64,000 nucleotides of DNA. Origin: Gaiellales bacterium (GTDB lineage Bacteria > Actinomycetota > Thermoleophilia > RBG-16-64-13). A program made the translations under genes and the position numbers. Below the pieces are notes generated by a model. The model did no database searches. It saw nothing but the letters and a program-made list of their open reading frames with translations, and was not told the DNA's origin. Location: NCBI GenBank assembly GCA_012719395.1, contig JAAYAL010000035.1:6084-70083 (forward strand), in the 5' to 3' direction. The number at the start of each line of letters is the position of its first letter. Position 1 is the stretch's first letter. Shown piece after piece: positions 1,899 to 59,142 of the stretch.

Positions 1899-3116
1899 GT
1901 GGCCATGGATCCCATCTTCTTCCATCGCAATCCGGATCCCGCCACGGCGGAGGGCCCACGGCAGGGACTGCGGGTGGCCCTCCAGCCCAACCTGGCCGTC
2001 GCGGGCTGGCCCATGGAAGCCGGCTCCCGGGCCTTGGCAGGTTACGCGGCGCCGGAGGACGCCACCATCGTGCGGCGGCTGCGAGCGTCCGGCGCCCATC
2101 TCTCCGGCTCCACTCATATGAGCGAGTTCGGCTTGGGTCTGGCCGGCAATGGGACGGGGGCGGCGCTGCGGGCCGGCGAGGCCGACGTGGAGCTGGTGCT
2201 GGACCTCATGGGGGAGAGCCGGCTGGCCGCGGCCGGTGCCGCCGTCTGCGGCTTCAAGCCCAGCTACGGACTGGTATCGCGGTTCGGCCTGGTGGGGCTC
2301 ATTCCCTCCATGGAGTGCTGCGGCATCATGTCTGAGAGCCTGGGCGGCATCCGTGCCGTGCTGCAGGTCGTGGCCGGTCAGGACGGCCTTGATTTCTCGC
2401 TTCCCGAGGAGCCGGTGCCGGACTTCGCGCCCGAGACCGTCGATCCGGCGCGGATCACGGTCGGCGTGGTGGGGGAGGCGCAGCACGACCTCGGCGTTAC
2501 GCAGGAGGAGGCATTTCGTTCGGCGATCGACGGCATGGCCGGGGCGGGATTCGCCGTCCGGCAGGTGTCGCTGCCGGAGTGGCCTCTCTTTGCCTTGGTG
2601 CATAGGATCGTGGGCTCGGTGGAGGCTTCGTCCGCGGCCGGCCGTTACGATTCCGTTCGCTACGGCCGACGAGCATCGGGCGCCAAGAACTGGAACGAGA
2701 TGTATCTGCTGTCGCGTGGCGCGGCGTTTGGGACGCTGCTCAAGAGCTACCTCATCCAGGGTGCCTACTTCCAGTTCGAGCGCTACGGTGCGTTTGAGGA
2801 CGCGTGTCGCATCCGCGCGCGGCTCGTGGGGGAGATGCGGCGGCTGATGGCGGAGGTGGACGTCCTGGCACTGCCGGCGGTGGTTTCGGGGCCGAGAGGG
2901 GGCGAGGCTGCCGATGACGCTTCGGATGCGCCGGACGGCGTGTACGCTCAGTTCGCCTTGACGCTGTTCGCCAATGTGACCGGCCAGCCGGCCCTGTGTC
3001 TCCCGTCGACCATGGCGTCGCACACGGGGCTCCAGCTGGTAGGTCCGCGCCTCAGTGACGGGCGGCTCCTGGCGCTTGCCGAGTACCTGCAAAAGACGGG
3101 CCGGGGAGGCAACTGA
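1899..3116 (+). CDS. gatA: GatA-like amidase-signature protein (shortened, catalytic triad degenerate)
   Basis: It lies between aspS-gatC and gatB with 3-6 nt gaps. Amidase-signature motifs are present (CGFKPSYGLVSRFGLVG, EASSAAGRYDSVRYG) and the C-terminal tail resembles GatA. At 405 aa it is shorter than the ~485 aa typical of GatA. Gln replaces the catalytic Lys (VALQPNL), and GNGTG replaces the GGSSGG cis-Ser region. Confidence 0.7.
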   Translation: MAMDPIFFHRNPDPATAEGPRQGLRVALQPNLAVAGWPMEAGSRALAGYAAPEDATIVRRLRASGAHLSGSTHMSEFGLGLAGNGTGAALRAGEADVELVLDLMGESRLAAAGAAVCGFKPSYGLVSRFGLVGLIPSMECCGIMSESLGGIRAVLQVVAGQDGLDFSLPEEPVPDFAPETVDPARITVGVVGEAQHDLGVTQEEAFRSAIDGMAGAGFAVRQVSLPEWPLFALVHRIVGSVEASSAAGRYDSVRYGRRASGAKNWNEMYLLSRGAAFGTLLKSYLIQGAYFQFERYGAFEDACRIRARLVGEMRRLMAEVDVLALPAVVSGPRGGEAADDASDAPDGVYAQFALTLFANVTGQPALCLPSTMASHTGLQLVGPRLSDGRLLALAEYLQKTGRGGN

Positions 3117-3118
3117 CC

Positions 3119-4549
3119 ATGGAATTCGAAGCGGTCATCGGCCTGGAGATCCACGTGGAGCTGAACTGCACCACCAAGCTGTTCTGCGACTGCCCCAATC
3201 GCCCCGGGGATGATCCCAATGCCAATACCTGTCCCACCTGCCTTTGGCTGCCGGGCGCCATGCCGCGGCTCAGCGAGCAGGCGCTGGAGAAGGCGTCGCT
3301 GCTCTGTCTGGCCCTGGGCGCCGAGCTGCAGCCTCGCAGCGCCTTCGACCAGAAGGTGTACTACTACCCGGACCTGCCCAAGGGCTACCAGCTTTCTCAG
3401 GCCCATCTGCCGCTGGCGCGCGGCGGAGGCGTCGACATCATCGATGAGGACGGCTCCCCTTGCCGGCTGCGCATCCACCACGTCCACATGGAAGAGGACG
3501 TAGCCAAGCTGGTGCACGAGATGGAGGGCCGGGTGCCCATCAGCCTGGTGGACTTCAATCGCGCGGGGGCACCGTTGGTGGAGATCGTCACGGAGCCGGA
3601 TTTCCGCGCGCCGCACCAGGCCATGGAGTTCCTCAAGGCGCTGCGCACCCAGGTTCGCTACGTGGGCGCTTCCGAGTGCAGCATGGAGAACGGCACCATG
3701 CGCTGCGACGCCAACATCTCCGTCCGTCCCCGCGGCACCACACAGATGAACACCAAGGTGGAAGTCAAGAACATGAACTCGGTGCGGCACGTGGGCGACG
3801 CCATCGCCTACGAGATCGAGCGGCAGGGCGCGTCCGTGCAGGCGGGTGAGGCGGTGGTGCTGCACACGCGGCTGTGGGACCCGGACAAGAAGGCCACTTT
3901 GCCCATGCGTGCCAAGTTCGAGGGACCCACCGTGCCCGATCCGTCCGTGTCCGCCATTGAGCTGTCGCGGGAATGGATCGAGCGGATGCGGGCGCAGCTG
4001 CCGGAGATGCCGGCGGCGCGGGCCGAGCGGTTGGTGGAGCAGCATGGGCTGACGCGAGACGAAGCGCTCTCGTTGAGCGCCGACCCGGAGTCGGCCGACT
4101 TCCTCGAGGCCCTGGTGGCCGAGGGCGTGGCGCCGCGCATGGCCATGCACTGGCTGACCACGCAGCTGCTGCCCGCAGTGAGGGAGCGGCGGCAGGGACT
4201 GGGGACCTCACCTGTGTCTCCCGTGCGGCTGGCCGGGCTGTTGCACATGCTGGCCAAGGAGGAGGTCAACGCCAAGGCGGCGCGCGATGTGCTGGCGCAG
4301 ATGTTTGAGAGCGACCGGAGGCCGGAGGCGATCGTGCAGGCCTGCGGCTTCTCCCAGATCTCAGACCGTGGAGCCCTTGACGACCTGATCGATCAGGTGA
4401 TCCGCGGGCAGGAATCAGCCGTGGCCAACTACCGCGCCGGGCAGGAGAAGGCGCTGGGCTTCCTGGTGGGTCAAGTGATGCAGGCCTCGCGGGGGAAGGC
4501 CAACCCCAAGGTGATCAGGGAGCTGTTGGTGGAGAGACTGGGCGCGTAG
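3119..4549 (+). CDS. gatB: Asp-tRNA(Asn)/Glu-tRNA(Gln) amidotransferase subunit B
   Basis: The translation has the GatB N-terminus MEFEAVIGLEIHVEL and the Cys cluster CDCPNRPGDDPNANTCPTCLWLPG. It has a YqeY-like C-terminal tail and is 476 aa. Confidence 0.9.
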   Translation: MEFEAVIGLEIHVELNCTTKLFCDCPNRPGDDPNANTCPTCLWLPGAMPRLSEQALEKASLLCLALGAELQPRSAFDQKVYYYPDLPKGYQLSQAHLPLARGGGVDIIDEDGSPCRLRIHHVHMEEDVAKLVHEMEGRVPISLVDFNRAGAPLVEIVTEPDFRAPHQAMEFLKALRTQVRYVGASECSMENGTMRCDANISVRPRGTTQMNTKVEVKNMNSVRHVGDAIAYEIERQGASVQAGEAVVLHTRLWDPDKKATLPMRAKFEGPTVPDPSVSAIELSREWIERMRAQLPEMPAARAERLVEQHGLTRDEALSLSADPESADFLEALVAEGVAPRMAMHWLTTQLLPAVRERRQGLGTSPVSPVRLAGLLHMLAKEEVNAKAARDVLAQMFESDRRPEAIVQACGFSQISDRGALDDLIDQVIRGQESAVANYRAGQEKALGFLVGQVMQASRGKANPKVIRELLVERLGA

Positions 4550-11087: not shown

Positions 11088-11525
11088 CTAGAACGCTTCC
11101 AACTGGCAGTGACTGATCTTGATTCCCAGGGCATCGCAGGTCGAGGCCACCGCCGCCTTCTCCACGCCCATCGTGGCGGCCACCTTCCAGCAGGACGCGC
11201 AGCTGATGTGGCCATCGGCGGCCAGACGGAGCAGACGGTCCCGGAGGTCCTCGGACACCTGCTCTACCGGCCGCACGACGGCCCTCTCGGGCCCGTAGCC
11301 GAAGAGGCCCATTTGGCACTCAACGATGCGGTACTCGAGGAGGTCGGCCGTGTTGCCGATCTGGGAGGGCGCGACCATGAGCCTCTGCGCCACGTGGTGG
11401 GCGGCCGTGCATGTCAGCCGGCCGTCCGCGGTCTCCTCATTGAGGGCCGCCACGATGGCCGGGTCGGCAACGGTCCCCGCCGGGTGCTTCGCCCTGTACT
11501 TGCCGGCCTCTTCACGTGTCATCAC
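11088..11525 (-). CDS. Hypothetical Cys-rich (putative metal-binding) protein
   Basis: This 145-aa protein has a conserved-looking Cys pattern (LTCTAAHH...ISCASCWKV...STCDALGIKISHC). No family was confidently recognised. Confidence 0.45.
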   Translation of the reverse strand: MMTREEAGKYRAKHPAGTVADPAIVAALNEETADGRLTCTAAHHVAQRLMVAPSQIGNTADLLEYRIVECQMGLFGYGPERAVVRPVEQVSEDLRDRLLRLAADGHISCASCWKVAATMGVEKAAVASTCDALGIKISHCQLEAF

Positions 11526-12051
11526 TTGCCCTCCGCGATATGGTGCGTGCGACTGTTGCTGTTTGAAAGTCCGGGCGATCGCTGCTGCGCCGGCTGCGAC
11601 AGGTCAAGGAGCGCCTGACCTCTCGACGCCAGGGCTTCTGCCCAGGACTGCAGCAGCCCACGCCCCAGGGGCGCACCATTGTGCGAGCGACGAAGGGCCG
11701 GAGGTACTCACTTCCCAGGTGGAACTGACCATCCCCGCCTCTTCCAATAGTTGCAGGATACCGTAGATGCTGCCTGGGTCAACGTGTACGAGGTCTCCGA
11801 CCACCACCTCGACATGCTCGATGAGTGCGTACCTGCGAACGCAGGAGGCTCCGCCGTCTCTCTGCGGTCCTCTTGGTGCGTTTGTGATCATCCGCCTTGT
11901 ACGGTGAATTCCTACACTTTCTGCCGCGTTCCGGGCGCCGCGCGCGGTCTGTGGCGGGCCACCATGCATGCGCGCTATTCTGTCTACAAGGGGAAGGCTG
12001 AGCGGTTGTTGCAGTCGCGGGGCATTTGCACCCTCGGGAGAAAGGGAGCAT

Positions 12052-12477
12052 ATGGGTATCCTCAGCTTGGTCGACTGCTGTAGCTGGGTCCTCATCACCG
12101 GAGGGCGTGTGCAGCCCTTCTACCACTCCGAGTACCGACAGGTTGCTACGCTGCGCAAGGTCCGCCCCGAACCTCACCTGCAGATCAACCCTGAGGCCGC
12201 GCGTGAGCTGGGCATCCCCGATGGCGAGTGCGTGTGGATAGAGACGCCGCTGGGGCGGATCACGCAAAAGGCCGCTTGCTTCCCAGGGATCGATCCCCAG
12301 GTGGTGCATGCGGAGCACACTCGGTGGTTCCCGGAGGAGGACGACGTCGAGCCCAACCTGTACGGTGTCTTTCGCTCCAACGCCAACGTCTTGGTGGACG
12401 AGGATCCGGAGATATGCAATCAGAGCAGCGGCGGCTATCCCACCCGGGGCCTGCTCTGCAAGGTCTACCGGAAGTAG
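12052..12477 (+). pseudogene. C-terminal (domain IV / Molydop_binding) fragment of a Mo/W-bisPGD oxidoreductase
   Basis: The translation MGILSL...VLITGGRVQPFYHSEY...HLQINPEAARELGIPDGECVWIETPLGRITQKAACFPGIDPQVVHAEHTRWFPE...SNANVLVDEDPEICNQSSGGYPTRGLLCKVYRK matches only the last ~140 aa of DMSO-reductase-family enzymes. The upstream ~600 aa are absent, but an ATG with a GAAAGGGAG SD is present. Confidence 0.5.
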
Positions 12478-12637
12478 CCATGAGCCGTGGCGGGTGGGGC
12501 AACGCGGGGCTGGACGTGAACGGCCGAATGCCCTCGCCGTTGGGCGTGTGTGGCAAGTGACCCTTACTGGCTGGGCTCCCGGCTTGGGAGAATAGGGTGT
12601 CAGGAAGAGCGCAGGCAGCGACAGGAGGTGGAGGGGA

Positions 12638-13438
12638 ATGAGCAACGCCGAGCGGGCGACTGGCGGCTCTGCGGTCACTCAGGATCTTGAGCCGCGGTTC
12701 CGGAATCTGCGCTGGTGGAACATCGTGGTGGGTCTGATCCTAGCCGTGCAGGCGGTGATCTTGGCCGTGCTGTCCAACGATTTCACCATCCCGGTGACGG
12801 CCGGCTACCTGCAGGGCCCCCCCGGGACTGATCCCGTCCTCACCAGGATTGGCGGCCTGCAGCTGGCCTGGGGTGTCTTCGCCTTTATGGCCATCTCGGC
12901 ACTGGCGCTACTCACCATTGCTTCGCCGGGGGTCTTTGGCTGGTACAAGCGCAATCTCACCCAGAGTCGCAACTACGGCCGCTGGATCGAGTATTCCATC
13001 AGTTCGTCACTCATGATCATGCTCATCTCCATGGTGTGCGGCATCACCGATATCGCGGCCATCCTCGCCATCTTTGGCGTGAACGCCTGCATGATCTTCT
13101 TCGGGCTCCTGGTGGAGAAGTACGAGACCCCCGGCAAGACCAACTGGGCGTCCTATCTGTTCGGCTGCTTCGCGGGCATCGTCCCGTGGATCGCCATCGT
13201 GGTGTACCTCGTCAGCCCCGGATACGACGGCGGGCGGCCCCCGGGCTTCGTGTACGCGATCCTGGTCTCCTACTTCGTGTTCTTCAACACCTTTGCCGTC
13301 AACATGGTGTTGCAGTACAAGCGGGTGGGAAAGTGGCGGGATTACCTCTTCGGCGAGAAGGTCTACATCCTGCTCAGCCTGACCTCCAAGTCGCTGCTGA
13401 CCTGGTTGGTGTTCGCGAATACGCTCATCCCTTCGTAG
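12638..13438 (+). CDS. Heliorhodopsin (7-TM retinal protein, inverted topology family)
   Basis: There is near-colinear similarity to heliorhodopsin 48C12 (LSNDF.IP.T.GYL.GPPGT; RWIEYSISSSLMIMLI..VCGI.DIAAILAIFGVNA.MIFFG.L.EKY; GCFAGIVPWIAIVVY; PGFVYAILVSYFVFFNTFA; QYKRVGKWRDYL.GEKVYILLSLTSKS). The Schiff-base Lys lies in the last helix. The SD is GGAGG. Confidence 0.85.
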   Translation: MSNAERATGGSAVTQDLEPRFRNLRWWNIVVGLILAVQAVILAVLSNDFTIPVTAGYLQGPPGTDPVLTRIGGLQLAWGVFAFMAISALALLTIASPGVFGWYKRNLTQSRNYGRWIEYSISSSLMIMLISMVCGITDIAAILAIFGVNACMIFFGLLVEKYETPGKTNWASYLFGCFAGIVPWIAIVVYLVSPGYDGGRPPGFVYAILVSYFVFFNTFAVNMVLQYKRVGKWRDYLFGEKVYILLSLTSKSLLTWLVFANTLIPS

Positions 13439-14003: not shown

Positions 14004-14227
14004 TCAAGGGTGCCGGAGCGCTGTCCTTGCTGCCGTGGTGGCGCCCCTCACGGGGCGGGGCGCAACGAGCGCGCTTTCGCCCTTGGCCCCGCTCTGTCAG
14101 GCCGGCGGGCAGTTTGACTGTCGTTGCGTCCCTGGTTAGTCTGGAGGTGACGGTTGCTCGCGCTCGCCGTCGTCGCGGGGCGGGTGATCTTCCTCCACAT
14201 CGTCCACGCCACCGGATTGGGGGTTCC

Positions 14228-15415
14228 ATGGAAGCTCGTGATCATCGATCGGCCACGCTCCGAGGCCTGCGCGTCCGCCCGGTGCTGCTGTTGGCGCTGA
14301 CCCTGGTGCTGGTGGTGCTGATCGTGGGGCCGGCTCTGGCTTTCCCCGACGTTGCCGGCCATCCTTATGCCGAGGCCATCCAGGAGATGGCAGACCGGGG
14401 CATCGTCAACGGGTACGGCAACGGGAACTTCGGCCCTGACGGCCACGTGCTTCGCCAGCACTTCGCCAAGATGGTCTCGCTGACGCTGGATCTCCCCGCC
14501 GCCGAGTACGAGTGCTACTTCACGGACGTCGACAGGGGTCTCAGCCCCACGGATCCGCTTTTCCCCGACCGCTACATCGCCGTATGCGCGGCGTGGGGTA
14601 TCACCACCGGTGTCACGGATACCACCTTCGCGCCCTACGACAACATGAGTCGGGCGCAACTCATCACCATGGTGGCCCGGGCTGCGGAATTGCCTGATAC
14701 ACCACCCGCGTACTCGCCGCCGTTCGGCAACTTCGACAATACTCACTATCCCTGGGCGGCTCGGGCCTACCGCGCCGGCATGCTGGACGACCTGCTGGGG
14801 ATGGGGGCCGGCTACGACTTCTGGAAGCCGGCCACGCGCGCTGAGGCGTGCCAGATGCTGAGCAGTCTGCTCGCGTGGAAGGCTTCGGATCTGGTGGCAG
14901 TGATGAGGGCCCTTGAGGATTCGGGACTGATTGCCGAGGACTTCTTCGTGGAGGACTTCCTCATCACGGGTGACTGGGCGGGCGTCATCATCAGTGCTCA
15001 CGCCGTCGACACCGCCTCCGCGGGCCTGCAGCGGACGGTCGGCGGCTGGCAAGTGGTGCGCATCGGCACAGACCTGTCTTACGAGGGCTGGCTGACTCTG
15101 GGTGCGCCGGAGAACATCGCCGGTTTCCTGTCTGAGTACTCGGAGCTGGACATCATCCGCGATGTGCTGGCACAGTCTGATGCAATAGATGTGGACTTCG
15201 AGATACGTGACTCCCTGATTCTGGGCAGGTGGGCCGGGGTGGTTATCGGGAGCCCGGGACTGGACGACCTGTCGATTCTGCTGTACAAGAGTGGCTTGGT
15301 GGGCTGGGCCATCCTGGACCTGGGCACCGGGCTCTCCCAGGCGGACTGGCTGGCCTGGGAAGTGGCCGGGGAGTTCTGTCCGCTGGCCATTGCGCAATTT
15401 CTGACACCGTGCTGA
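14228..15415 (+). CDS. S-layer homology (SLH) domain protein with N-terminal TM/signal segment
   Basis: There are two SLH repeats (FPDVAGHPYAEAIQEMADRGIVNGYGNGNFGPD; YFTDVDRGL...IAVCAAWGITTGVTDTTFAPYDNMSRAQLITMVARA). The internal Met at 14228 precedes a hydrophobic stretch. The 5' part of the track ORF is Arg-rich and probably not coding. Confidence 0.7.
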   Translation: MEARDHRSATLRGLRVRPVLLLALTLVLVVLIVGPALAFPDVAGHPYAEAIQEMADRGIVNGYGNGNFGPDGHVLRQHFAKMVSLTLDLPAAEYECYFTDVDRGLSPTDPLFPDRYIAVCAAWGITTGVTDTTFAPYDNMSRAQLITMVARAAELPDTPPAYSPPFGNFDNTHYPWAARAYRAGMLDDLLGMGAGYDFWKPATRAEACQMLSSLLAWKASDLVAVMRALEDSGLIAEDFFVEDFLITGDWAGVIISAHAVDTASAGLQRTVGGWQVVRIGTDLSYEGWLTLGAPENIAGFLSEYSELDIIRDVLAQSDAIDVDFEIRDSLILGRWAGVVIGSPGLDDLSILLYKSGLVGWAILDLGTGLSQADWLAWEVAGEFCPLAIAQFLTPC

Positions 15416-18500: not shown

Positions 18501-19524
18501 CGCTGCGTCCCACCGCCTGGTTGTCGCGGATGCGCCCGCCGGCGCCGGTGGCCGCGCCGGGATAGGGTGCCACGCCCGAGGGGAAGTTGTGGGTCTCGGC
18601 GGTCAGCGTGGGGTGGAGCAGGACCGGCTGTGGTGCCAGGGGCGACGGGCCCAGCGGCTGCGCGGCGGCGAGAAGGGACACACGGCGGCCGGCGATGGCC
18701 GAGCTGTCGTCGCGGAAGGCGATCACCGAGTTGGGCGCCGAAGCTTCCAGCGGCTGCCGCACGATGTCCATGAGGTGCTTCTCGGGCACGCGCACGCCGT
18801 CCACCCACAGCCGGCCCCGAAAGACCCAGTGGCGCGAGTGCTCCGAGTTGGCCTGGGCGATCTGGAAGAGCTCCACGTCTGTGGGATCCCGGCCCAGGCG
18901 GCCGTAGATGGAGGCGATAAGCGCCAGGTCATCGCCATCCCAGCTGCAGCCGTAGTCGCGGTTGAAGCGCTGCAGGGCGCCGATGCCCAGGGCGGCCAGC
19001 GGGATCACTTCCACCGGCTGGGGCGTGAGGCCGGTCTCGAAGGAGGTCAGCGGCTGGCGGTAGCGCATCTCCGTCATGCGGTCGCGCAGGATGTTGACCA
19101 GTGCCTCGGCCTGCTCCTCGGTGACTGTCAGTGGCAACCCCAGCCGCATTGAGCGCTCCAGGCGCCACACCGCCCCCACGCCTGATCTCCTGCAGATCTC
19201 CACGGCGGCGGAGGACCACGCCGTTTCGAAGTTGAGGCGGGGGCCGTACTCGAGCACGGTGGGGAAGCGGCCTTCCAGGAAGCTGCCGTCCCCGAACCTG
19301 TCGGGTTCGAAGGTCTCGGAGAGGACGTAGCGCAGGATGTCCGCGTCACGGTCGGTGAGCGCGGTGCCCGCGTGGTGTCCTGTCTCCGCGTAGAAACAGT
19401 GCTCGGTGGCCACCTGTCCTACCGGTTTGCCCAGGATGGCCTCAGCGGTCGAGACGAAGGCCTCGACCCTGGTCGCGGTCATGCCCGGGGTACGGAAGAA
19501 ACGCCACATGCTCATAGGCCACAA
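15559..19524 (-). CDS. purL: Phosphoribosylformylglycinamidine synthase, large single-chain form
   Basis: The 1321-aa protein has an FGAM synthase N-domain, AIR-synthase-related domains and a C-terminal class I glutaminase domain in one polypeptide. Confidence 0.9.
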   Translation of the reverse strand: MWPMSMWRFFRTPGMTATRVEAFVSTAEAILGKPVGQVATEHCFYAETGHHAGTALTDRDADILRYVLSETFEPDRFGDGSFLEGRFPTVLEYGPRLNFETAWSSAAVEICRRSGVGAVWRLERSMRLGLPLTVTEEQAEALVNILRDRMTEMRYRQPLTSFETGLTPQPVEVIPLAALGIGALQRFNRDYGCSWDGDDLALIASIYGRLGRDPTDVELFQIAQANSEHSRHWVFRGRLWVDGVRVPEKHLMDIVRQPLEASAPNSVIAFRDDSSAIAGRRVSLLAAAQPLGPSPLAPQPVLLHPTLTAETHNFPSGVAPYPGAATGAGGRIRDNQAVGRSGLVCAAGAAYCTGNLHIPGYELPWEEDGWAHPPDLASPLDILIQASNGASDYGNCFGEPLIYGFTRSFGLHLPEGYRSWYKPLMYSVGAGQIRDQHTVKGAPEAGMLVVQVGGPAYRIGMGGGAASSMEQGRNVQELDFNAVQRGDPEMEQRMNRLMRACAELGEANPVVSAHDLGAGGDCNALPEIVEPAGAVIDLRAIPVGDQTLSVLEIWGNESQERNALLIRPQNLAVLEAVAARENVPLAVVGRVTGEGLLVLQDTRDGSRPVELPLDDILGQLPPKRFDFDRRPRIARPLSLPPASGFGRLLDLVLRLPSVCSKRFLTNKVDLDVTGLVMQRQLVGPRHLPLSDHAVIAQSYADPSGTALSLGEQPLKGLLSPGPGARMAVAEALLNMAGVVVTDLSDIKCSANWMLAAKQPGEGAWLYDAACALRDLLSELGVAVDGGKDSLSMASQGVAPDGSSELVLSPPQLVIAPYALVEDVEVRVTPDLKAAGDRLLLLPVGGRQRLGGSALAQVLGALGDETPDIEEAATLKAVFHAVQELVRRGAIVSCHDVSDGGLIVTLLEMAFAGDRGWRVDVAGEDPYHALFAEEAAVVVEVAQGAEAQAAAVLECHGVTAVDLGTVQDAPTLELAFNREPLLRKPLRDLHLAWEETAYRLERLQANPGCAEQEWQSHHLPPVTTPYRLSFDPDADPGPHGTFPGSRAAAPSPERRRTRGSHPRAAILREEGSNGDREMAAAFLAAGFEPWDVTTTDLLNGSVDLQDFQLAAFVGGFSFGDVLDSAKGWASVIRNHERLSEEFTTFFSRPDTLSLGVCNGCQLMALLGIPGFDLPDHRQPRFIRNTSERFESRFSTVRIGPSPAVMLQGMEDSILGIWVAHGEGRLHVPDPATLDWIVANRLAPIRYVDPEGEPTIAYPFNPNGSPLGIAALCSPNGRHLALMPHPERCFQLRQWPWVPPRWRHHNSPWLRMFRNAYEELSRP

Positions 19525-19707
19525 ACCATATCACGCCGACCGCCTGTGCGGGCACGCCGGCATGTCGGCGTGCCGGTCCTGTCGCGTCGGCCAGGAGGTG
19601 CCAAACGGCGCCCTGTTTGCTCGCGGGGGAGACACGCAATCCGGTATCCTGTTGCGGGCCGCCCACATCCCCGGGACGGTCGGGAGAGGAGGACCGTCAC
19701 GGGCACC

Positions 19708-21210
19708 GTGGGTTTCGACAACCAGAAGTACCTGGAGGAGCAGAGCCGCGCCATCGTGAGCCGCGCCGGGCGCATCGGCGGCAGGCTCTATCTGGAGTTC
19801 GGCGGGAAGATCACCTACGACTTCCACGCCGCGCGCGTGCTGCCGGGCTATGACCCCAACGTCAAGATCCGGCTGCTGCAGCAGCTCAAGGACCAGGTGG
19901 AAATCATCGTCTGCATCTACGCTGGTGCCATCGAGCAGCGCAAGGTGCGCGCCGATTTCGGCATCCCCTACGACGTGGATGCGCAGAAGCTCATCGACGA
20001 CCTGCGCGACTGGGGTCTCCCCGTGCGCGCCGTGGTCATCACCCGCTTCGAGGATCAGCCCTCGGCCCGCGTCTTTCGGGCGCGGCTGGAGCGCCGCAGC
20101 ATTGCCGTCTACACCCATCGCTTCACCAGCGGTTACCCCACTGATGTGGACCGCATCGTCAGCCGGGAGGGCTACGGTGCCAACGATTACATCCCCACCG
20201 AACGGCCGGTGGTGGTGGTGGCCGGCCCGGGGCCGGGGAGCGGCAAGCTGGCCACCTGCCTGTCCCAGCTCTACCACGAGCATCGGCGCGGCAACGCTGC
20301 CGGCTACGCCAAGTTCGAGACCTTTCCCATCTGGGACCTGCCGCTCAAGCACCCGGTCAACGTGGCCTACGAAGCGGCCACGGTGGAGCTCCACGACGTT
20401 AACCAGATCGACCCCTACCACCTGGCGGCCTACGGCGAGCAGGCGGTGAACTACAATCGGGACATCGAGGCCTTCCCCCTGCTGGCGCGCATCCTGCAGC
20501 GGGTGGGGGGAGCCGCTTTCTACCGGTCGCCCACCGACATGGGCGTCAACCGCGCCGGCTCCGCCATTGTGGATGACGGCGTGGTGCGTGTCGCCGCCGA
20601 GCAGGAGGTCATCCGCCGCCACTTCCGCTATGCCTGCGAGTACGCCGTGGGCTTGGTGGAGCGCGAGGATGCGGAGCGCGCTCAGCTCATCATGCACGAG
20701 TTGGGCTTGGACGAGGAGCAACGAGTGGTGGTCCTGCCGGCCCGGCAGGCGGCTGCCGAGGGGGAAGCCAAGGGCAAAGGCAACGACGGCGTCTACTGTG
20801 GAGCGGCCATCGCTCTGCCGGACGGCCAGATCGTCACCGGCAAGAACTCCACGCTCATGCATGCCGCCTCCGCGGTGGTGCTGAACGCTGTGAAGCACCT
20901 CTCCCGGATCCCGGACGAGATGCCGTTACTCACCCCGGCGGTGATGGAGTCCATCGCCGCTCTCAAGAAGAACGTGCTGCGCATGAAGTCGGTGAGCCTG
21001 GATCTGGACGAGATGTTGATCGCCCTGGGCATCAGCAGCGCCACCAATCCGGCCGCGGCTGCCGCGGTGGGCCATCTCACCGACCTGGCGGGGTGCGAGT
21101 TCCACACCACCCACCTGCCCACCGCCGGCGACGAAGCCGGCCTCCGGCGCCTCGGTCTCAACGCCACCAGCGATCCGCAGTTCGCCACCCAGTCGCTGGT
21201 CATCGGTTAG
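19708..21210 (+). CDS. DUF1846 (UPF0371) family protein
   Basis: The N-terminus GFDNQKYLEEQSRAIVSRAGRIGGRLYLEFGGKITYDFHAARVLPGYDPNVKIRLLQQLKDQVEIIVCIYAG matches UPF0371. The likely start is the GTG near 19708, downstream of GGAGAGGAGGA. The track ORF start at 19372 overlaps the divergent purL. Confidence 0.7.
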   Translation: MGFDNQKYLEEQSRAIVSRAGRIGGRLYLEFGGKITYDFHAARVLPGYDPNVKIRLLQQLKDQVEIIVCIYAGAIEQRKVRADFGIPYDVDAQKLIDDLRDWGLPVRAVVITRFEDQPSARVFRARLERRSIAVYTHRFTSGYPTDVDRIVSREGYGANDYIPTERPVVVVAGPGPGSGKLATCLSQLYHEHRRGNAAGYAKFETFPIWDLPLKHPVNVAYEAATVELHDVNQIDPYHLAAYGEQAVNYNRDIEAFPLLARILQRVGGAAFYRSPTDMGVNRAGSAIVDDGVVRVAAEQEVIRRHFRYACEYAVGLVEREDAERAQLIMHELGLDEEQRVVVLPARQAAAEGEAKGKGNDGVYCGAAIALPDGQIVTGKNSTLMHAASAVVLNAVKHLSRIPDEMPLLTPAVMESIAALKKNVLRMKSVSLDLDEMLIALGISSATNPAAAAAVGHLTDLAGCEFHTTHLPTAGDEAGLRRLGLNATSDPQFATQSLVIG

Positions 21211-56066: not shown

Positions 56067-57401
56067 ATGGGATGTCCCGTGTTGTGTGTCATCAAGGAGG
56101 TCAAGAAGCAGATGTGCAGTGACGCCGTGTTCAATCCTTTCGTCGTGGCCCAGCGACAGTTCGATCGAGTAGCCGACCTGCTGGAGCTGGACGAGGCTAC
56201 CAGAGCCCTGTTGCGGGAGCCCATGCGTGAGTACCATGTCAGTATCCCCGTGCGCATGGATGACGGCCGGGTGAAGGTGTTTCGCGGCTTCCGCTGTCAG
56301 CACAATGATGCGCTGGGACCCAGCAAGGGCGGCATACGCTTCCACCCGCAGGAGACGGTGGACACCATCAGGGCGCTGTCTATGTGGATGACGTGGAAAT
56401 GTGCTGTGGTTGGCATCCCCTTGGGAGGGGCCAAAGGCGGCGTTATCTGTGACCCTCACGACCTGAGTGCCCGGGAGCAGGAAGGTATCTGCCGTGGCTG
56501 GGTGCGGCAACTGGCCAAGGTGGTGGGACCGCTCGCCGATGTGCCGGCGCCGGACGTGATGACCAATGCCGAGCACATGCTGTGGATGCTTGACGAGTAT
56601 GAGGCCATCCATGGGGGTCGCTTTCCCGGGTTCATCACCGGTAAACCGGTGGGGATGGGTGGCTCGCTGGGCCGTACGGAGGCCACCGGCTACGGGCTCA
56701 TCTTCACGGTGCGGGAAGCCCTCAAGGAAATGGGCATGGACATCGCTGAGACCACAGCCAGCGTGCAGGGTTTCGGCAACGTGGCCCAGTATGCCGTTGA
56801 GCTTTACCAAATGATGGGGGGCAAGGTCACGGCCATCTCCTGCTGGGACCAGGTGGCCTGCACTCCCTTCGCCTACCGCAAGACGGCCGGTGTGGACCTG
56901 GGGGAGTTGCGTGGTGTCACCGATCGTTTCGGCGGGATAGACCAGGAGAAGGCCGCGGCGCTTGGCTACGAGCCCATCCCGGGCGAGAAGTGGCTGGAGC
57001 AGGACGTGGACATCCTGATCCCGGCTGCCATGGAGAACCAGATCACGGCGGAAGCCGTGGGTCGCATCTCCGGCCGCGTGAAGCTGATTGCCGAAGGGGC
57101 CAATGGGCCCACGGCTCCCGAGGCCGATCCGCTCCTGGTTGAGCGGGGCATCGTGAATATCCCGGACTTCCTGGCCAACGCCGGTGGAGTCACCTGCAGC
57201 TACTTTGAGCAGGTCCAGAGCAACATGAACTTCTACTGGCCGCGAGATGAGGTCCTGGGGCGGCTGGACACCAAGATGACCGACGCCTTCCTGGCGGTCA
57301 GCGAGTTGGCGCGGAGGCGCAACCTGTCATTGCGTGACGCGGCGTACGTCATCGCCGTGGATCGAGTGGCAAAGGCCAGCAAGGACCGTGGCTGGGTCTG
57401 A
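56067..57401 (+). CDS. gdhA: Glutamate dehydrogenase (Glu/Leu/Phe/Val dehydrogenase family)
   Basis: The catalytic Lys region GPSKGGIRFHPQ is present, together with GIPLGGAKGGV and the NAD(P) motif QGFGNVAQ. A possible alternative start lies at Met 56114. Confidence 0.85.
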   Translation: MGCPVLCVIKEVKKQMCSDAVFNPFVVAQRQFDRVADLLELDEATRALLREPMREYHVSIPVRMDDGRVKVFRGFRCQHNDALGPSKGGIRFHPQETVDTIRALSMWMTWKCAVVGIPLGGAKGGVICDPHDLSAREQEGICRGWVRQLAKVVGPLADVPAPDVMTNAEHMLWMLDEYEAIHGGRFPGFITGKPVGMGGSLGRTEATGYGLIFTVREALKEMGMDIAETTASVQGFGNVAQYAVELYQMMGGKVTAISCWDQVACTPFAYRKTAGVDLGELRGVTDRFGGIDQEKAAALGYEPIPGEKWLEQDVDILIPAAMENQITAEAVGRISGRVKLIAEGANGPTAPEADPLLVERGIVNIPDFLANAGGVTCSYFEQVQSNMNFYWPRDEVLGRLDTKMTDAFLAVSELARRRNLSLRDAAYVIAVDRVAKASKDRGWV

Positions 57402-59142
57402 CAAGGAGCACCGGGGGCTGTTCCCCCCGTTCGATCGTCGCTTCTTTGAGAGTGACGCCACATTCACGCGCGTAGGTACCGGAGTGCTCGGGGGCAAGGC
57501 CGAAGGCCTTGCCTTCGTGCATGCGGAGGTCATCTCCCTGCTTAGCGGCGGCTGCCCGAACGGTGTTGAGGTGTCCGTTCCTCGGATGATGGTCATTGCC
57601 TCCGACATGTTTGACGCCTTCATGCAGCGCAACCGCCTGGAGGAGTCGGCCGCCGACGGTGCGCCGGATGAGCGGGTGGCTCACGCGTTCATGCAGGGTG
57701 AGCTTCCGGCCGAGATGCTGGGTGACCTGCAGGCGCTGGTGGAATCGGTACGTTCACCCTTGGCTGTGCGCTCCTCTTCGCTGCTGGAAGACGCACTCGC
57801 GCATCCTTTCGCCGGTGTCTACGGGACCAAGATGATCCCCAATCACCAGCCGGCGGCCTCCGACCGTTTCGCCAAGCTGACGGAGGCGGTCAAGTTCGTG
57901 TACGCCTCTACCTACTTCTCGGCGGCCAAGGCGTATCGTCAGGGTCTGAGGATACCGGAGGGTCAGGAGAAGATGGCCGTCATTGTGCAGGAGGTCATAG
58001 GGGAACGGCACGGGTCGCGCTTCTACCCGGAGGTCTCGGGGGTGGCCCGCTCTTACAGCTACTACCCACTCCCCGGCGCGCGGTCGGAGGAAGGGATGGT
58101 GAGCTTGGCGCTGGGTTTGGGTAAGACCGTGGTCGACGGTGGGACCTGCTGGACGTACACGCCGTCTCGCCCTTCCGCGCCGCCGCCTGTGGGTTCGGGC
58201 CGGGCGCTGCTCGACGCAACACAGACGAACTTCTGGGCGGTCAACATGGGGGCGGCTCCATACGATCCTGCACGGGAGACGGAATACCTGTTCCAGCCCT
58301 CTCTTCAGGAGGCGGAAGGCGACGGCACACTGCTCCACCTGGCATCCACGTATGATGCGGTCTCGGACCGGGTGAGGCCGGGAATCGGCCGGCCGGGCCC
58401 GCGGGTCCTCAACTTCGGGCCCATGCTGGAGCTGAGCACGATTCCTCTCAACGACTGCGTGAGGGCCATGCTCGCCTGCTCGCGGGAGAGGCTGGGTTGC
58501 GAGGTGGAGGTGGAGTTCGCCGCTTGTCTGGCCGGGCGCCGGCGGGAGACCACCAAACTGGGGTTCCTGCAGTTGCGTCCCATGGCCTCTCCCGGTTCCT
58601 ACGTGACGGTGGACGTGGAGGACCTGTGGGGCGACGAAGTGCTGCTGGCCTCCGAGCGCTGCCTGGGCAACGCTGTGGTGAGCGACATCCGCGATGTGGT
58701 GTATGTGAAGCCCGGCAGCTTCGATGCGGGCAAGACCGGGAGGATTGCGCAGGAAGTGGGAGCGATGAACCGGGCTTTGCTGGCGGAGGGAAGGAAGTAC
58801 GTGCTCATAGGCTTCGGTCGCTGGGGGACGTCGGACCCCTGGCTGGGCATCCCCGTGGAATGGGGACAGATCTCAGGGGCGGGTGTGCTGGTTGAGGCGG
58901 CGCTGGACACCATGCAGCCGGAGATGAGCCAGGGTTCCCACTTCTTCCACAATCTCGTCAGCACCCACACGCTGTTCTTCTCCGTGCCACTGGGCGCCGG
59001 TCCGCAGGTGGACTGGCAGTGGCTCAAGCGGCAGGAAGTGGTGCGGGAATCGGACCATGTCCGGCATGTGCGGGCCGCAACTCCCCTGTCCGCCCATGTC
59101 GATGGCAGAAGCGGCCGGGGAGTGGTCATGCACCATGGCTAG
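57334..59142 (+). CDS. PEP/pyruvate-binding (PPDK_N / PEP synthase N-terminal ATP-grasp-like) domain protein, paralog 1
   Basis: The motifs VGTGVLGGKAEGL and AVRSSSLLEDALAHPFAGVYGT match PPDK_N motifs (GGKAANL; AVRSSAT.ED...SFAGQ). A conserved C-terminal block is present: GFGRWGTSDP...SQGSHFFHNLV. There is no PEP-utilizer C-domain. The start is ambiguous: no ATG/GTG/TTG lies between the gdhA stop and the GGK motif, and CTG ~57418 is preceded by AAGGAG. Confidence 0.65.
   Translation: MTRRTSSPWIEWQRPARTVAGSDKEHRGLFPPFDRRFFESDATFTRVGTGVLGGKAEGLAFVHAEVISLLSGGCPNGVEVSVPRMMVIASDMFDAFMQRNRLEESAADGAPDERVAHAFMQGELPAEMLGDLQALVESVRSPLAVRSSSLLEDALAHPFAGVYGTKMIPNHQPAASDRFAKLTEAVKFVYASTYFSAAKAYRQGLRIPEGQEKMAVIVQEVIGERHGSRFYPEVSGVARSYSYYPLPGARSEEGMVSLALGLGKTVVDGGTCWTYTPSRPSAPPPVGSGRALLDATQTNFWAVNMGAAPYDPARETEYLFQPSLQEAEGDGTLLHLASTYDAVSDRVRPGIGRPGPRVLNFGPMLELSTIPLNDCVRAMLACSRERLGCEVEVEFAACLAGRRRETTKLGFLQLRPMASPGSYVTVDVEDLWGDEVLLASERCLGNAVVSDIRDVVYVKPGSFDAGKTGRIAQEVGAMNRALLAEGRKYVLIGFGRWGTSDPWLGIPVEWGQISGAGVLVEAALDTMQPEMSQGSHFFHNLVSTHTLFFSVPLGAGPQVDWQWLKRQEVVRESDHVRHVRAATPLSAHVDGRSGRGVVMHHG

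Follow-up and report, generated by a model that had tools for sequence, protein, structure and literature searches.

A GatA-like protein with a predicted loss of glutaminase activity, encoded between an aspartyl-tRNA synthetase-GatC fusion and GatB in a gene cassette of anaerobic bacteria

In textbooks, the amidotransferase GatCAB exemplifies a glutaminase that feeds, via an ammonia tunnel, a tRNA-dependent kinase/transamidase to which it is coupled; to our knowledge, its A subunit is an active amidase in all the systems described. The gene considered here would depart from this rule. It lies in a stretch of 64,000 nucleotides from a Gaiellales bacterium of the Actinomycetota (assembly GCA_012719395.1, contig JAAYAL010000035.1, positions 6,084 to 70,083 of the forward strand; the whole stretch is called the window below), and it encodes a short GatA-like protein in which the catalytic and the glutamine-binding residues of GatA are replaced. 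Taken as a whole, the data are best explained by a folded, maintained paralogue of GatA, dead as a glutaminase, that serves as the A subunit of a dedicated Asn-transamidosome encoded by a cassette of three genes and draws its nitrogen, most likely, from free ammonia; we consider this reading probable.

Among the described systems, the bacterial GatCAB enzymes of Staphylococcus aureus (2DF4/2F2A) and Aquifex aeolicus (3H0L) share with the locus the gene order C-A-B, a canonical, full-length GatB and the fold of GatA, which the model of the GatA-like protein reproduces (template-modelling score on the query, TMq, of 0.88). They differ from it in that the GatA-like protein lacks the catalytic Lys and the nucleophile Ser, carries other residues in place of the glutamine-binding Tyr, Arg and Asp, and is without about 43 N-terminal residues and the loop of 20-22 residues that precedes GGSSGG, and also in that GatC is not free-standing but fused to the aspartyl-tRNA synthetase (AspRS). 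The Asn-transamidosomes of Thermus thermophilus (3KFU) and Pseudomonas aeruginosa (4WJ3) are made of the components that the cassette would provide, namely an AspRS of the non-discriminating kind (ND-AspRS), GatC, GatA and GatB, acting on tRNA(Asn), which are known here from their genes. The GatA chain of 3KFU is the best structural match of our model, and the AspRS of the cassette bears the His/Gly signature of the P. aeruginosa Asp/Asn ligase. The known transamidosomes, however, are non-covalent assemblies with an active glutaminase, whereas here AspRS and GatC form a single polypeptide and the glutaminase site is gone.

Three more distant systems also deserve comparison. The yeast mitochondrial GatFAB (4N0H/4N0I) is a variant amidotransferase in which an altered small subunit scaffolds GatA; this subunit is extended but not fused to a synthetase and, unlike the protein studied here, the GatA of this complex keeps its Ser-cisSer-Lys set and binds glutamine. 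In AtzE-AtzG (6C62), a 'vestigial' complex derived from GatA and GatC, a protein of the GatA family has also left the standard glutaminase role and kept a GatC-like partner, and AtzE is structurally related to our model (TMq 0.75). The situation is nevertheless the reverse of ours: AtzE retains an active amidase site, with a new substrate, and has ceased to work with GatB, whereas the GatA-like protein has kept GatB and GatC and lost its amidase site. The effector Tse8 (6TE4), which bears the amidase signature and interacts with the transamidosome, resembles the GatA-like protein in lacking Tyr309, Arg358 and Asp425 (10.1101/733030), but it keeps the catalytic triad, is a toxin and not an operon-encoded subunit, and is only a weak match in sequence (E=1e-5). 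Finally, NF009460 / PRK12820, the best match of the gene upstream, is a model that covers the fusion protein alone; the GatA-like partner was found under the names 'amidase family protein', 'hypothetical protein' or 'subunit A', and was not found described as glutaminase-deficient. No description of a glutaminase-deficient GatA subunit, or of a cassette made of AspRS-GatC, the GatA-like protein and GatB, was found in the literature. Thus, GatCAB, the Asn-transamidosome and the fusion modelled by NCBI are known parts, and a cassette with a glutaminase-dead GatA is apparently undescribed.

The genes and signals of the cassette in the window are as follows.

3-1892, + strand: AspRS-GatC fusion gene, with its TAA stop at 1890-1892 and its frame open to base 3 (Pfam and NCBIfam)
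1563-1616, + strand: linker of about 18 residues (LLNLGGQDLLPGTAEKED) from the AspRS core to the GatC-like part; alignments to AspRS chains of the PDB stop at ...LAELELL and the GatC-like part starts at WIDRLSW
1617-1889, + strand: GatC-like C-terminal domain (Pfam PF02686), ending in ...NAPSTKGDYFRVAGILE
1891-1897, + strand: AAGGGGA, resembling a ribosome-binding site, 7 nucleotides (nt) upstream of ATG 1905 (read from the sequence)
1899-3116, + strand: gene of the GatA-like candidate pseudo-glutaminase, with its TGA stop at 3114-3116 (Pfam and NCBIfam matches, alignments, fold model)
3119-4549, + strand: canonical gatB, 476 amino acids (aa), its ATG 2 nt past the stop of the GatA-like gene (Pfam, NCBIfam, PDB alignment)

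The GatA-like open reading frame (ORF) occupies the place expected of gatA, as had been pointed out in the original prediction, which was made from the letters of the window; it lies between the GatC-coding sequence at the 3' end of the AspRS gene and gatB. It comprises 405 codons from GTG 1899, from which residues are numbered throughout, or 403 aa from ATG 1905, and begins, when counted from 1899, 6 nt past the upstream stop codon. The spacing of AAGGGGA and the N-terminus common to the relatives, MD(S/P)IF, indicate that the true start is probably ATG 1905. An exact-sequence look-up of the ORF product gave no match, possibly because gene callers start at this ATG. In Pfam, the protein matches Amidase (PF01425) alone, at 178.4 bits for a gathering cutoff of 27, the best stretch corresponding to profile positions 133-445 and a second stretch being matched as well. 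Its top NCBIfam model is gatA (TIGR00132), with 224.5 bits, below the equivalog cutoff of 481.1. Solved GatA proteins have 466-485 aa, and the predicted shortening is real: it amounts to the 43 or so N-terminal residues and the 20-22 internal ones mentioned above.

In S. aureus GatA, the catalytic residues are Lys79, the cis-Ser Ser154 and Ser178 (PMC2330236), and glutamine is recognized by Tyr309, a substrate-binding residue, by Arg358, which binds its carboxylate, and by Asp425, which binds its amino group (10.1101/733030). The equivalent positions were sought by phmmer against solved GatAs, by a family profile against the GatAs of the PDB, and by MAFFT together with canonical GatAs.

1983-1985, + strand: CAG codon of Gln29, at the position of the catalytic Lys79 of S. 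aureus (all alignments)
2142-2156, + strand: AGNGT (residues 82-86), which is what the deletion has left here of the GGSSGG cis-Ser region (alignments)
2202-2222, + strand: DLMGESR (residues 102-108), opposite DTGGS(I/V)R, with the codon of Glu106 at 2214-2216 (all alignments)
2247-2288, + strand: retained amidase-signature core CGFKPSYGLVSRFG (residues 117-130; sequence and alignment)
2601-2603, + strand: codon of His235, at the position of S. aureus Tyr309 (alignment)
2748-2750, + strand: codon of Tyr284, at the position of S. aureus Arg358 (alignment)
2952-2954, + strand: codon of Phe352, at the position of S. aureus Asp425 (alignment)

The original prediction held that the amidase-signature core is kept, that Gln replaces the catalytic Lys, and that the cis-Ser region is altered, with some 20 residues deleted before it, and on all these points it was right. 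VALQPNL pairs with IA(V/I)KDNI of canonical GatA in every alignment, and the deleted residues, just before GGSSGG, are those of the ...TENSAF..T.NPWD..RVPGG... loop. MAFFT puts Asn84 at the cis-Ser position, where 96.5% of the relatives have a Ser (within G-S-x-A-G) and divergent members of the family have Ser, Asp, Gly or Asn; this variability means that the residue found there cannot be an essential nucleophile. It was also thought that the nucleophile Ser might survive in the GESR motif, and this did not hold: DTGGS(I/V)R aligns without a gap on DLMGESR, so that the equivalent of Ser178 is Glu106, and Ser107 is one residue out of register. All three positions of the triad are non-canonical (Gln29, Asn84 or a deletion, Glu106), and none of the three methods of alignment places Lys, Ser and Ser at them; the loss of catalytic residues is larger than had been claimed. 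The glutamine-binding residues have been replaced too, by His235, Tyr284 and Phe352. One MAFFT alignment has a gap at the Phe352/Asp425 position, Asp being absent either way. The numbering of A. aeolicus GatA is offset by +7 from that of S. aureus, identically at both ends of the aligned block, and the A. aeolicus residues at the glutamine-binding positions predicted by this offset are Tyr, Arg and Asp, as expected. Judged by these residues, the GatA-like protein is unable to use the amidase-signature mechanism or to bind glutamine in the known way, and its glutaminase activity is predicted to be absent.

The substituted residues are not peculiar to the window. A protein search gave 839 homologues at E <= 1e-10, of which the best 120, upon inspection, were 396-457 aa long (mostly 398-400) and 58-74% identical to the window protein. 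Among 200 aligned homologues, Asp102, Gly105 and Glu106 are present in 100% of the sequences, Gln29 in 99%, His235 in 98.5% and Phe352 in 96%, and position 284 is Tyr in 86% and Phe in 11.5%. Position 107 is Ser in 78% and otherwise Ala, Cys or Gly, and neither Cys117 nor Cys140 is invariant. Four of the five replaced pocket positions are thus at least 95% conserved, as compared with 29% of all columns. Looking at the protein more broadly, 146 columns are at least 90% conserved in canonical GatA. The GatA-like protein keeps 59 of them, and 45 have been switched to another conserved residue, or deleted, in its family (for example KD to QP, ASSLDQ to IPSMEC and KRRI to KSYL). We read this as a reconstruction of the active-site region and not as drift. 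The blocks KP(T/S)YG.VSR.GL and EASS..(R)YD.VRYG of GatA are retained.

A rebuilt site could still be a catalytic one. According to this alternative, the protein would have remained an amide hydrolase with a re-invented set of residues (e.g. Ser84/His235/Glu106, or Glu106 as a general base), acting on a donor other than glutamine and delivering ammonia to the GatB tunnel. The 96-100% conservation of Gln29, Glu106, His235 and Phe352, the Ser that most close relatives have at the probable cis-Ser position, and a pocket that is remodelled and not randomized are what one would expect in that case. It nevertheless seems improbable to us, since the window protein itself has Asn84, the assortment of residues in divergent members leaves no Ser nucleophile conserved across the family, and neither Ser107, which is variable, nor Cys117 and Cys140 can take its place as invariant residues; moreover, we know of no amidase-signature enzyme that works without the Ser-cisSer-Lys set.

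Selection and structure both indicate that the gene is maintained. By the method of Nei and Gojobori, applied to 14 closely related pairs, the ratio of nonsynonymous to synonymous substitution rates (dN/dS) is 0.15-0.40 for the GatA-like protein, 0.13-0.36 for the GatC tail, 0.055-0.175 for GatB and 0.03-0.14 for the AspRS core. Selection on the GatA-like protein is clearly purifying, though two- to four-fold more relaxed than on its catalytic partners. An AlphaFold2 model built from 96 sequences, canonical GatAs included, reached a predicted local distance difference test (pLDDT) value of 91.5 and a predicted template-modelling score (pTM) of 0.92; a run from 23 close relatives only (pLDDT 56.7) was set aside. 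When the model was compared with the PDB by Foldseek, the top nine matches were all GatA chains (TMq 0.84-0.89), and the closest bacterial ones superpose with a root-mean-square deviation of 2.2-2.5 A (TMq 0.86-0.89). In the model, then, the GatA fold is intact.

These data dispose of the most trivial explanation, that of a decaying pseudogene or of a gatA that was mis-assembled or mis-sequenced. The shortness of the protein and its missing catalytic residues are what might have suggested it, and a mis-sequenced ORF had been raised as a possible weakness of the original prediction. No frameshift or internal stop interrupts 1899-3116, and the same length, short architecture and substitutions recur in the 200 homologues, from independent assemblies, and in 80 syntenic loci. 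Together with the dN/dS values and the confident fold prediction, this refutes the explanation, whose likelihood we regard as negligible. The long ORFs on the opposite strand of the window are a usual by-product of its 67% GC content.

The first 95-115 or so codons of the AspRS-GatC gene, which encode the anticodon-binding domain, lie beyond the edge of the window, and the GTG at 66 that was listed as the start of this ORF is an artefact, as the frame is open back to base 3. Full-length orthologues, at related loci numbered here L001 to L080, have 705-706 aa. Pfam recognizes tRNA-synt_2, GAD and GatC in the window product. In NCBIfam, it scores highest with NF009460, 'bifunctional aspartyl-tRNA synthetase/amidotransferase subunit C', matched over model positions 117-723 with 1157.6 bits for the window copy, the 5' end of which is cut off (cutoff 1379). 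With 1316-1318 bits for a match that begins at model position 18, the full-length orthologues of L001 and L015 come close to the cutoff without reaching it, NF009460 being by far the best model for such proteins, and the AspRS of the orthologues is full length and far above the cutoffs of the AspRS models. The NF009460 match runs on through the GatC tail. The tail of the window copy matches PF02686 at 22.6 bits (E=1.2e-4; cutoff 23), and this is the sole Pfam match in ten of ten orthologous tails, with E values from 1.6e-8 to 0.03. A phmmer search of the PDB with the tail gave nothing significant, the identification as GatC coming from the Pfam and NCBIfam profiles.

The charging specificity of this AspRS can be approached through its anticodon-binding domain, which was read from the orthologue of L001 since it falls outside the window. 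Its motifs are RDHGG and LPGTEN, as found also in the Asp/Asn ligases from P. aeruginosa (4wj3_M) and Mycobacterium tuberculosis (5w25), whereas the discriminating AspRS1 of T. thermophilus has RDLGG. We take the His of RDHGG and the Gly of the ...P(E)G... loop, from work on the P. aeruginosa ND-AspRS, to be marks of a non-discriminating enzyme, as a lead and not as a curated rule. The AspRS of the cassette would accordingly be of the bacterial type with signatures of the non-discriminating kind. The downstream partner is unambiguous: GatB, the gene of which is preceded by a GGAGG motif within the 3' end of the GatA-like gene, contains GatB_N and GatB_Yqey, exceeds the cutoffs of three NCBIfam GatB equivalogs (551.8 bits for 338 with NF004012, 513.9 for 414 and 479.3 for 314.8) and aligns over its full length with solved GatB chains including 3h0l_B (E=7e-125). 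Synteny and translational coupling are what suggests that the three subunits assemble and amidate Asp-tRNA(Asn).

The three genes are found together. In a scan of one genome per species, the GatA-like family was found in 157 of 185,579 species, all told from eight or more phyla of anaerobes. Most carriers are represented by metagenome-assembled genomes, from Dehalococcoidia, Syntrophales/Smithella, Desulfobacterales, Thermoleophilia/Gaiellales, Verrucomicrobiota, Planctomycetota, Acidobacteriota, Lentisphaerae and Myxococcota. They also include the cultured Syntrophus buswellii DM-2 (NZ_CP175563.1), which with ORM2a (CP113000.1) offers a complete genome. Where the source is named, it is anoxic (e.g. 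an anaerobic membrane bioreactor, a tar biofilm, lake sediment). Judged by its arginyl-tRNA synthetase (ArgRS), the bacterium that carries the window is an uncultured member of the Thermoleophilia. The initial guess that PRK12820 is a Desulfovibrio family was not borne out by the taxonomy of the loci. Wherever the contig reaches the genes, the order AspRS-GatC, GatA-like, GatB is the same, in 80 of the 80 related loci, with gaps of 2-20 nt. No fourth conserved gene or dedicated tRNA gene was found near the cassette in these loci; the flanks are unrelated between genomes, and those of the window show no synteny with the related loci. Over 62 complete cassettes (from L001-L080 and the window), the mean pairwise identity is 83.5% for the AspRS core (range 73-99%, across at least eight phyla), 78% for GatB, 63.5% for the GatC tail and 62% for the GatA-like protein. 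The AspRS core is strongly constrained, although the GC content of the cassette has largely adapted to each host.

Two groups of Smithella loci carry informative neighbours. In five loci of one clade (L055, L056, L060, L076 and L078), a second, ordinary AspRS of 590 aa, which has no GatC tail, is encoded beside hisS at a distance of 1-3 kb from the cassette. It also has RDHGG and is 45-47% identical to the AspRS of the cassette, so that these genomes carry two AspRS genes side by side. In another clade, a gene of the glutaminyl-tRNA synthetase (GlnRS) type, with tRNA-synt_1c and both C-terminal anticodon domains, is found downstream of gatB and convergent to it (L081, and likewise L019, L021 and L027; 93-96% identical between loci); the hosts concerned would need no amidotransferase to make Gln-tRNA.

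9640-11151 of L056, - strand: ordinary AspRS gene, with hisS at 11401-12813 (- strand)
12883-14574 of L081, - strand: GlnRS-type gene

This distribution bears on whether the complex is a core one, as the original prediction assumed. The cassette might be the only AspRS and amidotransferase of its host, in which case all Asn-tRNA, and perhaps Gln-tRNA, would be made without a glutaminase. The 64-kb window contains no further gatA, gatB or aspS, the proteins of the cassette are very strongly constrained, and in the Smithella lineage with a GlnRS gene beside the cassette an amidotransferase would be needed for Asn only. We find this possibility rather doubtful, although it may hold for some hosts. 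The tail-less AspRS stands next to the cassette in the five loci mentioned, the great majority of species in the same phyla lack the cassette, and the flanks differ in every lineage. Moreover, Actinomycetota as a rule rely on GatCAB to make Gln-tRNA as well as Asn-tRNA, and this dual role would be hard to fill with GatC tied to AspRS. Instead, the cassette looks like an accessory module that has moved between anaerobes by horizontal transfer, as its patchy occurrence, unrelated flanks, own AspRS and, in some genomes, coexistence with a second AspRS suggest, together with an AspRS core that is far more similar across phyla than it is to that second AspRS. Of the original proposal, therefore, the pseudo-enzyme subunit, possibly with another ammonia donor, is well supported by the sequences (the triad and the glutamine-binding residues are gone, the modelled fold is intact, selection is purifying and the operon is kept), whereas a core complex is probably not what this patchy, self-contained cassette with its own AspRS encodes.

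The family extends further than these loci. A profile search of 1.84 billion representatives delineated a discrete group of short GatA-like proteins of 364-412 aa scoring 368-610 bits, canonical GatAs starting at about 218 bits. The deletion, Gly-Glu-x-Arg and His235 persist in members whose identity to the window protein is only 40-52%, and which have Gln, Glu, Pro or Ser at the Lys position. Members that are 27-45% identical (L083, L084) show the same arrangement of AspRS-GatC, GatA-like protein and GatB. The protein P0160 (27% identical) has Glu in place of both Lys and Ser and is again encoded between an AspRS-GatC fusion and GatB, and the link between a fusion of GatC to an aminoacyl-tRNA synthetase (aaRS) and the loss of the triad is thus old and robust.

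A parallel arrangement, with a glutamyl-tRNA synthetase (GluRS), was found at a locus designated L087.

1-6844 of L087 (ENA ERZ27257302 k141_498931): Glu-type cassette, with genes for GluRS-GatC, the GatA-like protein P0235, GatB and a PF04960 glutaminase

The GluRS-GatC fusion matches TIGR00464 and PF02686, P0235 is a short GatA-like protein of 387 aa without the Lys, and the gene for the glutaminase, of the GlsA type, lies 10 nt downstream of gatB; a second GluRS, 48% identical, is encoded on the other strand. This suggests that in L087 a stand-alone glutaminase has replaced the activity of GatA, and it lends independent support to the view that short GatA-like proteins do not make ammonia themselves. 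It might also be taken to mean that the GatA-like protein of the AspRS cassette is a docking scaffold only, and that an unlinked glutaminase, e.g. of the GlsA type, supplies the ammonia, the system being glutamine-dependent in vivo. We consider this quite unlikely: neither the window nor any of the 80 AspRS-type loci yielded a glutaminase gene or homologue, no fourth gene is conserved with the cassette, and L087 belongs to a separate, rare lineage which is closest to canonical GatA of Bacillota/Clostridia (including Oscillospiraceae).

Two sets of proteins related to this part of the family should be recorded. An unfused version was seen in L089 (4111-7986), L090 and L091, with gltX, a free gatC (95 aa), the gene of the short, 368-aa GatA-like protein P0272 and a gene in the position of gatB; P0271 and P0272 are the only proteins close to P0235, and this family is very rare. 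In L088 (5701-8759), P0153 is a GatA of 439 aa from an ordinary gatC-gatA-gatB operon which keeps the Lys and the nucleophile Ser and, in the alignment, has neither the loop of about 22 residues before GGSSGG nor the cis-Ser motif. P0153 may represent an intermediate form, or else an oddity of alignment or assembly.

A working model for the Asn-transamidosome that we propose can be outlined as follows. The AspRS part would charge tRNA(Asn) with Asp. The GatA-like protein, GatB and the GatC tail of a dimeric AspRS would form a permanently tethered transamidosome, in which the tethered GatC clamps the GatA-like protein to GatB and the mischarged tRNA is handed directly to GatB. The latter would then phosphorylate the side chain of Asp with ATP, and amidate it. 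The GatA-like protein would serve as the scaffold that GatB and GatC need. As it would be unable to free ammonia from glutamine, the nitrogen donor is most likely free NH3/NH4+, a donor that enzymes of the GatCAB type can use in vitro; in GatFAB, NH4Cl bypasses the glutaminase (PMC4027206). The old pocket, remodelled and conserved (Gln29, Glu106, His235, Tyr284, Phe352), may have become the mouth of the ammonia tunnel, where its Glu, His, Tyr and Phe could recruit NH4+, which is speculation on our part. By using ammonia directly, the cell would be spared the ATP that glutamine costs, which would suit ammonium-rich, energy-limited habitats, and the fusion, by keeping the mischarged tRNA from escaping, would make the module safe to transfer between hosts.

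Several observations weigh against this picture, or against parts of it. The ammonia donor is deduced solely from the absence of a glutaminase site. Conserved residues in place of the original pocket would be expected equally of a site that binds a new ligand or has a catalytic role and of one that lets ammonium in, and the Ser at the likely cis-Ser position of most relatives, missing from the window protein and from divergent members, calls for the same caution. As to mobility, the GC content of the cassette follows that of the host (r=0.91, over a range of 47-72%) and exceeds it, in hosts of low GC, by as much as 11 points, which implies that the transfers are real but not recent, and a long vertical residence under extreme constraint is an alternative to frequent transfer. 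Searches for plasmid or viral copies of the cassette found none, the plasmid matches to the GatA-like protein being ordinary amidases or GatA with less than 30% identity.

A wider proposal, which we put forward tentatively and to which we give somewhat less than even credence, is that the Asp and Glu types together represent an undescribed class of transamidosomes, tethered covalently through the fusion of an aaRS to GatC, in which GatA has lost its glutaminase. The Asp type would be a self-contained, horizontally spread and ammonia-dependent module for the synthesis of Asn-tRNA(Asn), or of asparagine, and the old pocket (the five residues named above) would be an ammonium capture site feeding the GatB tunnel, sparing the ATP spent on glutamine in energy-limited anaerobes.

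If the glutaminase is indeed lost, GatA has a structural or gating role that is separable from catalysis, the synthesis of Asn-tRNA in nature can run on another source of nitrogen, and these loci amount to a natural experiment on ammonia channelling. As a transamidosome that is held together covalently in nature, the AspRS-GatC fusion would lend itself to structural studies of how the substrate is handed over. There are consequences for annotation as well. Depending on the pipeline, the GatA-like protein is labelled 'GatA', 'hypothetical protein' or 'amidase family protein', and a dependence on glutamine may have been assumed in error when the metabolism of syntrophs, Dehalococcoidia and other anaerobes was reconstructed.

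Some other genes of the window, all on the + strand, may be mentioned. At 56067-57401 is a gene of the Glu/Leu/Phe/Val dehydrogenase family, probably coding for a glutamate dehydrogenase, which adjoins a homoserine dehydrogenase gene and a gene of the diaminopimelate/ornithine decarboxylase type; if it is a glutamate dehydrogenase, it would fit an assimilation of ammonium without glutamine synthetase. Two adjacent, overlapping ORFs follow, at 57334-59142 and 59057-61897, both of which match PPDK_N (the ATP-binding domain of pyruvate phosphate dikinase) only and may be paralogous enzymes using phosphoenolpyruvate, or a split gene. Finally, a protein with S-layer homology (SLH) domains, an unremarkable feature of the cell envelope, is encoded at 14027-15415 and a DUF1846 protein at 19372-21210.

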